The notes: a model not told the origin generated them from the letters alone. DNA of 26,777 nt from a virus (IMGVR_UViG_2778261535_000011:1-26777); one strand, 5' to 3'. Positions 11,096 through 20,715 are shown, counted from the first letter of the stretch. Program-made: numbers and translations.

Positions 11096-11110
11096 TTACC
11101 TTTCAGGTAA
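11096..11110. promoter_or_regulatory. Operator-like palindrome TTACC-tttca-GGTAA upstream of the tRNA, next to TTGACA at 11074-11079
   Basis: Seen: perfect copy of the 15-bp motif repeated across the element. Promoter role inferred from the nearby -35-like hexamer; the -10 is not convincing. Confidence 0.45.
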
Positions 11111-11432
11111 GTAAATGGTTCATTCCGGTTATTAACCTGACTGGCTTGTCGTTAAATTGAACAGGTGGAGTGAGCTTTTATTTTGAGCAGTACGGCGTAT
11201 GGCACATGCGCCGATAGCGGTCTGGATACGTTTAAGGGGCACCCTCCCTTGCTCGGGCAAACGAACCAGGTAGCCGGAATGTGCAAGTCGAGCGGTTTTA
11301 TTCCGCGCACGGGGATTCACCATCCCGGCGATTCGGTGTGACACCTCGGAAGAGACGAGGGTGCAACGATGAGAGCATTTATGGAGCCGCGACAAAGTGT
11401 GGCGCCTTAACAGGCTAAGTGCTCTCAGCGTT

Positions 11433-11509
11433 GTGGCATTAGCTCAGTTGGACAGAGCAACCGCCTTCTAAGCGGTTGGTCGCAGGTTCGAATCCTGCAT
11501 GCCACGCCA
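11433..11509 (+). tRNA. tRNA-Arg, anticodon UCU (reads AGA), 77 nt with encoded CCA
   Basis: Seen: manual cloverleaf fold. Acceptor GTGGCAT/ATGCCAC, D-stem GCTC/GAGC, anticodon stem ACCGC/GCGGT, loop CTTCTAA, T-stem GCAGG/CCTGC with loop TTCGAAT, discriminator G, then CCA. Related to but not identical with E. coli argU as recalled. Confidence 0.9.
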
Positions 11510-11552
11510 GAATCACGCCTAAGGACCGTGATGCCAGAAGTTCCAGGTGCTT

Positions 11553-11594
11553 GGCGGTGATGGTTTCCCTTGAAGGACTATCACCGCCCTTTTT
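11553..11594 (+). terminator. Intrinsic terminator downstream of the tRNA (GGCGGTGAT ... ATCACCGCC followed by CTTTTT)
   Basis: Seen: 9-bp stem around a structured loop, followed by a T-run. Confidence 0.6.
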
Positions 11595-11672
11595 ACAGCA
11601 GGACGCCATTGCGATGACTTCATGCTGTAAACCCGTACAGCCACGGAAGGCAGAACTCATTGCTTCCAGTTC

Positions 11673-11698
11673 GCCCGGTTCGTCCGGGCATTTTTTTT
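11673..11698 (+). terminator. Intrinsic terminator (GCCCGG-ttcgt-CCGGGC followed by eight T)
   Basis: Seen: 6-bp GC stem plus T8. Confidence 0.75.
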
Positions 11699-11714
11699 GC
11701 CTGATGACCACAAA

Positions 11715-11732
11715 TTACCTTAAAGGTATAAT
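11715..11732 (+). promoter_or_regulatory. Operator-like site TTACC-ttaaa-GGTAT overlapping a perfect TATAAT (11727-11732) just 5' of the moron gene
   Basis: Seen: one-mismatch copy of the palindrome; TATAAT hexamer; ATGACC lies 17 nt upstream as a weak -35. If this is the promoter, translation starts at the second ATG (11758). Confidence 0.4.
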
Positions 11733-11733
11733 C

Positions 11734-12582
11734 ATGAAAAACTTTAAGGTAATTAGTATGTTCGAATCGTTCAAAGAGCTGTTTTTATCTACTGCCAATA
11801 CTGCCGTGCATCGAGCTAAAAACCCTGTGCTTGGTGCTTTTGTTATGTCCTGGTGCGCCTTCAACTGGAAATCACTTCTTTATCTATTTTTTAGCAAATC
11901 AAATATAATAGATAAAATTTCATACATCTCAGATAACAGCACATGGAAAACTGTTATGTTTTATCCATGCTTATCTGTAATTACTATCTGCTGCCTATTA
12001 CCATGGGTAAACAATATCATTAACGTATGGCAAGCAAAGCCTCTTGATAATAATGACTCAATCGAAAATCACCGGAAGGCAAGAAAAATACAACGTGAAA
12101 CACGGCTACAGAGATTGCTGGCTAAAAAAGACATTACTTACGAAAAAGTAAAAACAGGCGCTGAAAAAAACATTCAAGATATGAAAGAGGAAATAATTCT
12201 TTCAAAAGACAGAATGGGACAACTCACATCTGAATTGAAAGAGAGGGAGACAGAACTGCGCGCAGCACAAGCTCGTATTTTAGAATTATCTAAGGTTATT
12301 GATGAAACAACATCTAAACTAGAAAATCTAGAAAAAGCTCACAAACAATTAAAAGACGAATATAAGCCTTATAAAGAAAGTATTCATTTGACAACAAACA
12401 ACTCAATTGCAAATAGACTTGCTGATCCAAAGATAGTACAAATGATTAACGAGTCTGCAAAAAATTTAGGCATTGCTAAAATTAACAACCCAGAAATCAG
12501 TACATTATTGAATAATCCACTAGCAAATATAAATGGCGGTTTAAATCCCGCCAATCAAAGAAAATCAAAATCACAAAAGTAA
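11734..12582 (+). CDS. Moron: AT-rich membrane-anchored coiled-coil protein (about 275-283 aa); candidate superinfection-exclusion or abortive-infection protein
   Basis: Seen: opposite polarity to the flanking terminase and portal genes; strongly AT-rich relative to neighbours; two hydrophobic segments (PVLGAFVMSWCAFNW; MFYPCLSVITICCLLPWVNNII), then a K/E-rich heptad-like region (ELKERETELRAAQARILELSKVIDETTSKLENLEKAHKQLKDEYK) and an Asn-rich tail; five AGA and one AGG among twelve Arg codons. Alternative start at 11758. The ORF-track start at 11476 is rejected because it overlaps the tRNA and terminators. Function is inference. Confidence 0.65.
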   Translation: MKNFKVISMFESFKELFLSTANTAVHRAKNPVLGAFVMSWCAFNWKSLLYLFFSKSNIIDKISYISDNSTWKTVMFYPCLSVITICCLLPWVNNIINVWQAKPLDNNDSIENHRKARKIQRETRLQRLLAKKDITYEKVKTGAEKNIQDMKEEIILSKDRMGQLTSELKERETELRAAQARILELSKVIDETTSKLENLEKAHKQLKDEYKPYKESIHLTTNNSIANRLADPKIVQMINESAKNLGIAKINNPEISTLLNNPLANINGGLNPANQRKSKSQK

Positions 12583-12585
12583 AAA

Positions 12586-19557: not shown

Positions 19558-19565
19558 AATAGATA

Positions 19566-19589
19566 TGAAAAGACCGCCGGGTGGCGGTC
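19566..19589 (-). terminator. Intrinsic terminator just downstream of the Cro-like gene (GACCGCC-accc-GGCGGTC followed by TTTTCAT on the minus strand); tR1-like
   Basis: Seen: 7-bp GC-rich stem at 19572-19578/19583-19589 plus a four-T run on the minus strand. Confidence 0.55.
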
Positions 19590-19611
19590 TACAGAGGGTT
19601 GTAGCTGGATA

Positions 19612-19842
19612 TCATGAGTAGAAGAAGTATGCCAGTTCTGCTTTTGAGCGCAGCCATTGTCTTGTTTTACAGGCTTTAAAAAGCCCATTCATCAATACTT
19701 TACCTGGCATTTTGCGCTTACCTGTTAAGTGAGTCTGGATATAGTGACTCGTCGTTCCGGCTTCCTGTGCGAAGGCTTCACGCTCATCCGGAGTAAGTGC
19801 AAGCCAGTGCTTTTTGAAATCGAAATGTCCGTTATCGCTCAT
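19612..19842 (-). CDS. Cro-like small DNA-binding regulator, 76 aa
   Basis: Seen: 76-aa ORF divergent from the repressor gene across an operator-rich intergenic region. Inference: Cro/YdaS-like role from position and size. Confidence 0.6.
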   Translation of the reverse strand: MSDNGHFDFKKHWLALTPDEREAFAQEAGTTSHYIQTHLTGKRKMPGKVLMNGLFKACKTRQWLRSKAELAYFFYS

Positions 19843-19878
19843 AGCTATTGCCTGATATTTATTTCAGATAATAAATAT

Positions 19879-19941
19879 TCACCCATAAGGTAACAAAAAT
19901 CAAGGATAGTTACCTATGAGGTGCATTTACCTGTTGGGTAA
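19879..19941. promoter_or_regulatory. Immunity-region operator cluster: three TTACC-N5-GGTAA-type sites (19879-19893 one mismatch, 19910-19924 two mismatches, 19927-19941 perfect) with divergent promoters
   Basis: Seen: three 15-bp palindromic or near-palindromic sites in the 154-bp gap between the divergent Cro-like and repressor genes. Established: lambdoid OR regions have this layout. Confidence 0.65.
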
Positions 19942-19996
19942 TATTGCTTTAAATTGAATCATCTACTGATTCATATATGAGGCGATTTTCCAGAAA

Positions 19997-20581
19997 ATGA
20001 AAAGTATCCAGGACGTCCGCAGGCAAAATCTCAACGACTTGATCGACCGTGAATTCAATGGTGTTCAGACGCGGATGGCAGAAAAACTTGGAACTCAGGC
20101 AAATCTGGTAAACCGCTGGGCTCTTGGCAAGAAGGTTATCGGCGACCAGGTTGCACGAAAAATTGAAGCTGCCGCCAATAAACCCCGTAACTGGCTTGAT
20201 ATTGATCGCTCGCTTTCTCAGGAGGGTTTTCAGCCTGTCGGCCCGAGTGATATAGGTCAGCTGGCGGCTCACAACCTGGAACGCTGGATGAGCGAAAGCC
20301 GCGACCTTTCAACGCAGGGAAAACTACACCGCGCATCCGGCGTCGCCCAGGTGACAATCAGCCGCCTGTTAAACAATGAGGTCAGCGTTTCCATTTCCAC
20401 CCTGGAGAATGTTGCATCCGCATTCGGGCGTCACGGCTATGAATTACTGATTCACCCGCACGACCCTGCGACCATCAACTATGATCGCTCGCGCTACGCA
20501 TTGTTACCCGAAACCGAGAAAGCAAAGATCGAAAGTTACATTGAATTTGTCATCAACCAGAACGAAAAAAACAAACAATAA
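19997..20581 (+). CDS. Prophage repressor (CI-like), dual HTH, no LexA/S24 peptidase domain, 194 aa
   Basis: Seen: N-terminal HTH-like segment (QTRMAEKLGTQANLVNRWALGKKVIG) and a second HTH-like segment (ASGVAQVTISRLLNNEVSVSISTLENVASAF); no Ser-Lys dyad or GDSM-type motif in the C-terminus; divergent from the Cro-like gene. Confidence 0.7.
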   Translation: MKSIQDVRRQNLNDLIDREFNGVQTRMAEKLGTQANLVNRWALGKKVIGDQVARKIEAAANKPRNWLDIDRSLSQEGFQPVGPSDIGQLAAHNLERWMSESRDLSTQGKLHRASGVAQVTISRLLNNEVSVSISTLENVASAFGRHGYELLIHPHDPATINYDRSRYALLPETEKAKIESYIEFVINQNEKNKQ

Positions 20582-20602
20582 AATCATATTTTTCAGTAAG
20601 TA

Positions 20603-20629
20603 AGCCGCCTTCTGGCGGCTTTTTTATTG
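20603..20629 (+). terminator. Intrinsic terminator after the repressor gene (AGCCGCC-ttct-GGCGGCT followed by TTTTTTATT)
   Basis: Seen: 7-bp stem and T-run about 20 nt after the repressor stop. Confidence 0.8.
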
Positions 20630-20638
20630 CCTATTCGA

Positions 20639-20715
20639 TTACCTAATGGGTAATTTTTTTAACTCATATCTATTGACACCAAACCAGATACGCATAATTA
20701 TTACCTCAACGGTAA
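20639..20715 (+). promoter_or_regulatory. Early-left (PL-like) promoter region with two perfect operators (20639-20653 and 20701-20715) flanking TTGACA (20673-20678) and TAATTA (20695-20700)
   Basis: Seen: -35 and -10-like hexamers with 16-nt spacing, bracketed by two perfect palindromes, directly upstream of the plus-strand operon. Confidence 0.6.

Follow-up and report, generated by a model that had tools for sequence, protein, structure and literature searches.

Dispersed TTACC-N5-GGTAA palindromes as probable operators of the master repressor in an ε15/phiV10-like prophage

We analyzed a stretch of viral DNA of 26,777 nucleotides (nt) (IMGVR_UViG_2778261535_000011:1-26777, referred to below as the window) in which 15-base-pair (bp) palindromes of the form TTACC-N5-GGTAA are dispersed among the genes of a prophage, including those for a repressor, Rep, and a small Cro-like protein. 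The region shares 96-97% identity with the Escherichia phages vB_EcoP_PAS61, phiv142-3, and phiV10 of the genus Uetakevirus, the type member of which is Salmonella phage ε15, and judged by its sequence the window is an ε15/phiV10-like (Uetakevirus) prophage. The first part of its gene order comprises internal virion and tail genes, portal, gp3, a tRNA-Arg, a cargo gene, and terL/terS; the remainder comprises early-right genes, the cro-like gene, rep, early-left genes, and int. Non-coding DNA makes up about 1.75 kb, or 6.6%, of the window.

The rep gene (19997-20581, plus strand) encodes a repressor of 194 amino acids with an N-terminal Cro/YdaS-type helix-turn-helix (HTH) and a C-terminal HTH_3-like domain, for which Pfam gives a YdaS-like match at residues 21-61 and an HTH_3 match at residues 106-147. 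Its residues 1-190 form a full-length match to the Rep of phage SPC32H (PDB 5D50; E=4e-42). No Peptidase_S24 domain was found in Rep by the Pfam search, and the same tool detects S24 in the CI protein of an unrelated contig. The protein is 100% identical to the Rep of phiV10, vB_EcoP_ZX5, and others, and an identical Rep is present in 80 of the 80 IMG/VR loci kept. Across six complete genomes (the window, phiV10, Enterobacter phage Tyrion, Klebsiella phage BUCT711, ε15, and SPC32H), identity to the window's Rep ranges from 100% down to 42%, with ε15 and SPC32H at about 42%, and the alignment retains 69 invariant columns, including the recognition helix NLVNRW. The cro-like gene (19612-19842, minus strand), a homolog of ε15 gp39, belongs to phrog_35, "transcriptional repressor" (E=5.6e-13), and its HTH segment, AGTTSHYIQTHLT, is invariant in five phages.

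An exact scan of the window recovers seven perfect TTACC-N5-GGTAA sites (TTACCNNNNNGGTAA), starting at 11096, 14672, 17534, 17596, 19927, 20639, and 20701. The initial annotation, made from this DNA alone, had listed six perfect copies, all of which are present, and had missed the one at 14672-14686. Four sites with one mismatch (starting at 11715, 14654, 19542, and 19879) and one with two mismatches (at 19910) bring the total to 12; the near-perfect copies reported earlier at 11715, 19879, and 19910 are in place, a fourth given as 19543-19557 is displaced by one base, and the site at 14654-14668 had been overlooked. Mononucleotide shuffling predicts 0.025 perfect sites per window, in keeping with the earlier estimate of about 0.03, and 0.77 sites with up to one mismatch, and none of 100 dinucleotide shuffles contained any perfect site. 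All 12 sites are intergenic and stand at promoters or gene starts, and the 11 with no more than one mismatch all fall within the non-coding 6.6% of the window (p ~1e-13); the structural-gene block (10.7 kb) contains none of this quality. When two mismatches are allowed, there are 28 matches in the window against 7.5 expected, and the 16 among them that are not in regulatory regions exceed chance only mildly. The motif is most densely clustered around rep and the cro-like gene.

The same arrangement recurs throughout the genus. Each of the six complete genomes carries 7-11 perfect sites, where about 0.04 would be expected, and the positional classes are the same throughout; the structural-gene blocks of the six (about 92 kb) contain no perfect site and two one-mismatch sites only. 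Both the motif and its positions are also kept in six further enterobacterial prophages from Superficieibacter, Erwinia, Klebsiella, Citrobacter, and Scandinavium. Taken together, 64 perfect sites in nine genomes yield an extended 17-bp consensus, A-TTACC-wwWww-GGTAA-T, in which the central position is A or T in 124 of 128 cases and the arms are invariably TTACC and GGTAA, with no compensatory variants. A control for specificity came from 120 IMG/VR contigs that had been retrieved by an unrelated RNA motif and that we split by Uetakevirus gene content. The 67 with a Uetakevirus backbone hold 147 perfect sites in 600 kb, whereas the 502 kb of the 53 without Uetakevirus genes contain none, and one-mismatch sites are no more frequent there than chance predicts, so that the motif is specific to Rep-encoding genomes rather than a signal general to hosts or phages.

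These sites have a precedent in the type member. The ε15 record (NC_004775) contains seven features annotated as "protein_bind, repressor, lysogeny" with the sequence ATTACC-N5-GGTAAT, which are located before terS, gp3, and the tail-fibre gene (one each), after the repressor gene (three), and before the gene that follows the replication genes (one). The window's classes A, B, F, G, and I, described below, match ε15 coordinates 12, 2931, 32479-32632, 33341-33388, and 35907-35969, respectively. Perfect sites at 24704, 33341, 33358, and 35969 carry no annotation in the ε15 record, and the phiV10 record has no annotated repressor sites at all; no usable account of the motif or of SPC32H operators emerged from a search of the literature. 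The initial annotation had proposed that one DNA-binding protein controls many more promoters than a classical OL/OR pair, and the ε15 annotation, the conserved positions, and the confinement of the motif to Rep-encoding genomes all speak for it. We consider it very probable that the palindromes are operators of the prophage master repressor Rep. The dispersed operators were thus correctly read and are already known from ε15-like phages, and current understanding is not overturned by them; the additions made here are modest and consist of a strict 62-bp geometry, a half-site at the late promoter, and an operator at the cargo promoter. They may nonetheless be of use, as phiV10-type prophages, which are very common in E. 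coli, could gain operator and promoter annotation that is absent from their records.

Work on related repressors gives an idea of how such sites may be occupied. In a paper that cites the structural work (PMC9638917), Rep is described as binding palindromic sites as a tetramer in which the two members of a DNA-binding pair come from different dimers, and the antirepressor Ant as disrupting tetramer formation; a second citing paper describes the C-terminal domain as a tetramerisation fold linked to DNA looping (PMC9986798). The initial annotation had called the repressor a dual-HTH protein. Two HTH regions are indeed found by Pfam; binding of DNA through both is not what the solved homolog indicates, in which only the N-terminal domain contacts DNA and the C-terminal HTH-like domain is a module for tetramerisation and Ant binding. 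Overexpression of the Rep of ZX5 reduced endolysin transcripts by 99.99% and holin transcripts by 99.97% and abolished free phage, in a study that merely speculates on a "PL" operator (PMC9782041).

Three sites lie between rep and the cro-like gene, as had been noted before. G1 (19879-19893, TCACCCATAAGGTAA, one mismatch) lies within the spacer of the cro-like promoter (-35 at 19896-19891 and -10 at 19873-19868, minus strand), followed by G2 (19910-19924, TTACCTATGAGGTGC, two mismatches) and by the perfect G3 (19927-19941), which is the closest of the triplet to rep. Their spacing of 31 bp and 17 bp is the same in ε15, SPC32H, and the Erwinia and Citrobacter loci. The G1 mismatch, TCACC, is kept in the five other phage genomes in which the site is detectable at no more than one mismatch and in five further enterobacterial loci; BUCT711 has no G1 counterpart within one mismatch.

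Two further promoters are each bracketed by a pair of perfect sites, in agreement with the earlier reading, and at both of them the last base of the -10 element is also the first base of the downstream operator, whose partner lies 62 bp away. At the early-left promoter (20673-20701, plus strand, TTGACA-17-AATTAT), which serves the gp37 and gp36 homologs, recE/recT, and xis, the upstream operator (F-up, 20639-20653) stands past the rep terminator (20602-20621) with its centre near -62, and the downstream one (F-down, 20701-20715) spans the predicted start site. Past the rep terminator, the only invariant elements are the two operators and, between them, CTATTGAC (-35) and ATTAT (-10); seven divergent loci share the -35 block unchanged, and the spacer drifts. 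The second pair belongs to the promoter of a DUF1064 gene (17186-17530), on the minus strand at 17548-17576, which consists of TTGATT (17576-17571), a 17-nt spacer, and TTTAAT (17553-17548). Here, the upstream operator (I-up, 17596-17610) lies past a terminator-like hairpin with a U-run (~17622-17642, minus strand), and the promoter-distal arm of the downstream operator (I-down, 17534-17548) doubles as the Shine-Dalgarno sequence, 4 nt ahead of the ATG at 17530. The -35 block of this promoter, TATTGA, is invariant in six loci, and the footprint pattern is that of the early-left promoter.

The remaining sites in this part of the map precede the replication and packaging genes. Operator H (19542-19556, one mismatch) follows immediately after the cro-like terminator (19590-19571), ahead of the gp40 homolog and the replication genes; its outer arm is degenerate (GTACC or ATACC) in four genomes, and the ε15 counterpart has two mismatches. 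Ahead of terS, the perfect operator A1 (14672-14686) lies between a terminator (14723-14706) and the gene, in synteny with the annotated ε15 repressor site at 12-27, and A2 (14654-14668, one mismatch) follows at a distance of 18 bp and adjoins the start of terS (ATG at 14654 or 14651).

Operator B (11096-11110, perfect) separates the structural operon (gp3 ATG at 11005, minus strand) from a divergent unit comprising a structured RNA and the tRNA-Arg. It is syntenic with the annotated ε15 site at 2931-2947 and sits at a fixed offset in every contig that has the late-promoter block described below. The initial annotation had placed a single site here, upstream of the tRNA, which is correct, and the site also serves the structural (late) operon. 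Toward the RNA and tRNA, a -35 element, TTGACA (11074-11079, plus strand), is followed by a -10 (TACCTT) that is the left arm of operator B, and the combination of ATTGAC(A/C), a variable 17-nt spacer, and TTACCY is kept in five divergent genomes. As the conserved -35 lies 17 nt from the operator arm, there appears to be a divergent promoter whose -10 is the operator itself. A lone TTACC half-site (11034-11038) is exactly 62 bp from operator B, and a perfect half-site at +/-62 bp accompanies class B in all six genomes.

The half-site lies inside an invariant block upstream of the gp3 ATG (~11012-11079, minus strand), about 60 bp of which are unchanged in five divergent genomes. Its sequence reads CTACG.TAAATAA..ATATGTGGTTAAATTGGTAATAATTTAA..CGTA.GGAG and includes a palindrome, TTAAATT-N6-AATTTAA; no good -35 was found within the block. 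A related ATATGTGGTT...GGTAATAGAAT arrangement is present ahead of the tail-fibre gene of phiV10 and SPC32H. The block is probably the signature of an activator-dependent late promoter.

Most of the operator sets are directly downstream of a terminator, and the genome can therefore be read as a series of separately gated operons. Under such a scheme, it would be made up of short operons, each closed by a terminator, with operators at the start of the next. Those gated within the window would be the cro-like gene, gp40 and replication, DUF1064 onward, terS and packaging, the structural genes, the RNA and tRNA, the cargo gene, and the early-left recombination and excision genes; beyond the window, the ant/tail-fibre, lysis, and int units would be gated by operators in the same way. 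In the lysogen, Rep would silence each lytic unit directly, with no antitermination cascade of the λ type.

The spacing of the sites suggests how a tetramer might engage them. A distance of 62 bp between paired operators is near-universal across the genomes, with 63 bp seen once, in BUCT711 and its Klebsiella twin. The half-sites of a palindrome are one helical turn apart, and each site of 15-17 bp would most likely be held by a pair of N-terminal HTH domains. As a tetramer offers two such pairs, Rep could occupy two operators simultaneously, either adjacent ones (17-18 bp apart, as at terS and between rep and the cro-like gene) or ones separated by 62 bp, which amounts to about six helical turns and so places both on one face of the DNA. 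With an operator bound near -62 and its 62-bp partner bound over the start site, the promoter would be clamped and RNA polymerase shut out. A more ambitious proposal, which we hold tentatively and on balance doubt, is that fixed 62-bp micro-loops clamp the promoters, with the half-site as partner at the late promoter, and that Rep directly gates every lytic operon, the cargo gene, and the promoter of the structured RNA (11111-11432), so that the regulon amounts to the whole temporal programme of the phage and not to an on/off immunity switch. The strict 62-bp spacing offers a testable prediction for the way in which tetrameric Rep engages with DNA.

Several considerations weigh against assigning these sites, and the repression they imply, to Rep. 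We infer from sequence that Rep binds the sites in this phage, and we likewise infer which promoters are actually repressed. The HTH regions of Rep and of the Cro-like protein are both invariant wherever the motif occurs, and the comparison therefore cannot tell which of the two, or whether both, read the sites. Among viral and genome contigs, no relative was found in which a changed recognition helix goes with a changed motif: a Rep search of viral contigs returned identical proteins only, the enterobacterial homologs in genome contigs have the same helix and the same motif, and the homologs that share only the N-terminal part (from Hydrogenovibrio, Thiomicrospira, and Paraburkholderia) have a different helix, no TTACC sites, and no clear alternative palindrome. 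No convincing sigma-70 promoter was found at the terS pair, at site H ahead of gp40, or at rep; at the terS pair and site H, repression could act as a roadblock or on activator-dependent promoters. Looping over 62 bp, proposed from the spacing together with published work on the tetramer, would also require a short loop.

The strongest alternative is that the Cro-like protein mainly or also reads the sites, as a lytic regulator in a two-protein switch, which we regard as a serious possibility at somewhat less than an even chance. Its membership of a PHROG of transcriptional repressors and the invariance of its HTH segment in all motif-carrying genomes fit such a role, and its gene diverges from rep over three graded operators, the classical layout of a switch with shared operators. 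The protein has no Pfam match, however, the ε15 record credits the sites to the repressor, and an identical Rep, when overexpressed, suffices by itself to shut down transcription of the lysis genes. A role for the Cro-like protein would in any case complement Rep as the reader of the operators and not exclude it. It is very unlikely that the palindrome is instead a site for a host factor, or for another phage regulator such as the gp49-like protein (14773-15114) or the PerC-like early-left activator, with no connection to immunity. Several sites do accompany promoters of activator-dependent appearance (the late promoter and terS), and IHF sites overlap two of the operators in the ε15 record, but the motif is missing from the 502 kb of unrelated enterobacterial phage contigs that share the same hosts, it is densest around rep and the cro-like gene, and, by overlapping the -10 and start site of the two best-defined promoters, it is placed to repress and not to activate. 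To our knowledge, the motif matches no familiar E. coli transcription-factor consensus. Least likely is that the inverted repeats act as nucleic-acid structure (RNA hairpins, RNase III sites, or cruciforms), a reading encouraged by their perfect 5-bp arms, 5-nt loop, and the RNase III annotations of ε15 in some of the same intergenic regions, but one that we reject because of arms that never vary in 64 perfect sites, where the preserved flanking A/T and central W also point to sequence-specific recognition, and disfavored further by a very weak, A/T-rich 5-bp stem and by the position of half of the sites upstream of predicted start sites and hence in untranscribed DNA.

With Rep as the probable reader, the closest known counterpart is the gp38 system of ε15, which shares with the window the ATTACC-N5-GGTAAT sequence, the dispersed positions, the genus, and the gene order; ε15 differs in a repressor that is 42% identical, in having three sites after rep where the window has two, in the lack of a tRNA-Arg, and in its cargo. 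A study by Kropinski et al. in 2007 is said to be associated with this repressor/operator system. The Rep-Ant switch of SPC32H (PDB 5D50 and 5D4Z), reportedly the subject of Kim & Ryu 2013 and Kim et al. 2016, has a full-length homologous repressor and the same motif at the same positions, although Rep is only about 42% identical and the ant locus of the window's phage lies outside the window, with a LexA-boxed ant seen in the near-identical phiV10. A single operator specificity would thus extend across ε15-, SPC32H-, and phiV10-type phages despite repressors that are only 42% identical, and the shared operator and NLVNRW helix therefore predict cross-immunity among phages of Salmonella, E. 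coli, Klebsiella, and Enterobacter.

The layout also recalls that of λ, in which CI and Cro share the OL and OR operators. Divergent repressor and cro-like genes, three graded operators between them, a second set at early-left, palindromes of about 17 bp, and cooperative multimers are features in common. Unlike λ CI, the window's Rep has no S24 self-cleavage domain, and induction would be by antirepressor; unlike those of λ OL/OR, the operators extend to the packaging, structural, replication-distal, cargo, lysis, tail-fibre, and int promoters, and no N- or Q-type cascade is evident. Dispersed sites are known as well from C1 of phage P1 and from gp71 of mycobacteriophage L5, the sites of which are called "stoperators"; in both they are asymmetric, and those of L5 occur in transcribed regions in a single orientation. 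As in those systems, one repressor would use genome-wide sites to silence many units directly; the window's sites differ in being symmetric palindromes, all of them at promoters or gene starts.

The site at 11715-11729 (TTACCTTAAAGGTAT, one mismatch) overlaps the spacer and the -10 (TATAAT) of a promoter at 11704-11732, ahead of a cargo gene (11734-12582, plus strand) that occupies a variable slot between terL and the tRNA. The encoded protein of 282 amino acids belongs to phrog_4780, of unknown function, and has no Pfam match. The slot holds different genes in phiV10, ε15, SPC32H, and Tyrion, and homology to the phiV10 backbone stops near 11698; the cargo allele is present in 18 of 5,426 complete E. 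coli genomes at a coverage of at least 80%. In EC.W1-9, a homolog in the same slot is preceded by a perfect site, and in BUCT711 by a site with two mismatches, whereas the copy in the lambdoid KO-TP1 has a related -10 region and no proper operator. That the site is merely the cargo gene's own promoter is an explanation made less likely by this operator-free copy. The single site that the initial annotation placed at this accessory (moron) promoter is real, and its proposed control of the cargo receives moderate support from these comparisons: the cargo gene may well be under Rep operator control, and it is probably not expressed from the 11704-11732 promoter in the lysogen.

Induction would proceed through a LexA-controlled Ant that breaks the Rep tetramer and not through RecA-stimulated self-cleavage. 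A LexA box adjoins the ant homolog in phiV10, SPC32H, ε15, and Tyrion; in phiV10 (PhiV10p24), it is CTGTATAAATACACAG at 20822, and the ant/tail-fibre locus is outside the window. Within the window, we considered a perfect CTGT-N8-ACAG sequence at 11625-11640 (CTGTAAACCCGTACAG) as a LexA site; about 0.4 such matches are expected per window and its centre is not AT-rich, so it is probably due to chance. It lies between two terminators 3' of the tRNA-Arg, and phiV10 has the same pattern.

Also outside the window, a one-mismatch operator, TTACCYTAAAGGTAT, is found about 45 bp upstream of int, beside attP, at ε15 26882, phiV10 26870, SPC32H 26960, Tyrion 28568, and BUCT711 12620. The mismatch generates a TATAMT -10, and the 15-mer is identical to the cargo site at 11715. 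The int promoter, too, may therefore be gated by Rep.

A putative structured RNA, with a core at ~11190-11361, occupies the 320 nt that separate operator B from the tRNA-Arg (11111-11432, plus strand), and this interval is 72-81% conserved across the genus. A 26-mer from the core occurs in at least 120 IMG/VR viral contigs, 53 of the 120 (about 44%) being those without Uetakevirus genes. A structure assembled by hand comprises 31 pairs in eight helices and is 97% paired across 69 diverse sequences, with compensatory changes at 14 pairs, although one helix falls within the pattern used for retrieval and so could not vary. Covariation is 0.238, compared with 0.105 in shuffles (reached by none of 500) and at most 0.058 with slid partners. 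The RNA has no Rfam match at E<=1, and a literature search by sequence found nothing; part of it is marked as an "RNaseIII" site in the ε15 record. In unrelated phages, the RNA is found in the early region, after a CI (S24) repressor gene of the same strand, with a ParB-HTH gene downstream and divergent genes for P22-type Cro and CP76-type CII; a tRNA-Arg comes next in only a few of these contigs. Because it heads early or leftward units, ahead of terminators, the RNA may act in cis as an antitermination element or be processed into a regulatory RNA.

Two smaller features were noted along the way. Within a replication gene (18430-19245), a tandem direct repeat at 18852-18895 (plus strand), TGGGATCATTCAACATCCCGTTTTTGGG in two copies, was scored as two terminator-like hairpins; by analogy with λ O, it probably represents origin iterons inside the initiator gene. 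A palindrome, GTGACATGTCAC, at ~14752-14765 (minus strand), lies 3' of the gp49-like gene, before the terminator at 14723-14706 and the terS operators, and is kept in ε15 and SPC32H, whose deposited genome ends fall between the terS-side terminator and the first operator. This palindrome may be related to packaging or to binding by the gp49-like regulator.

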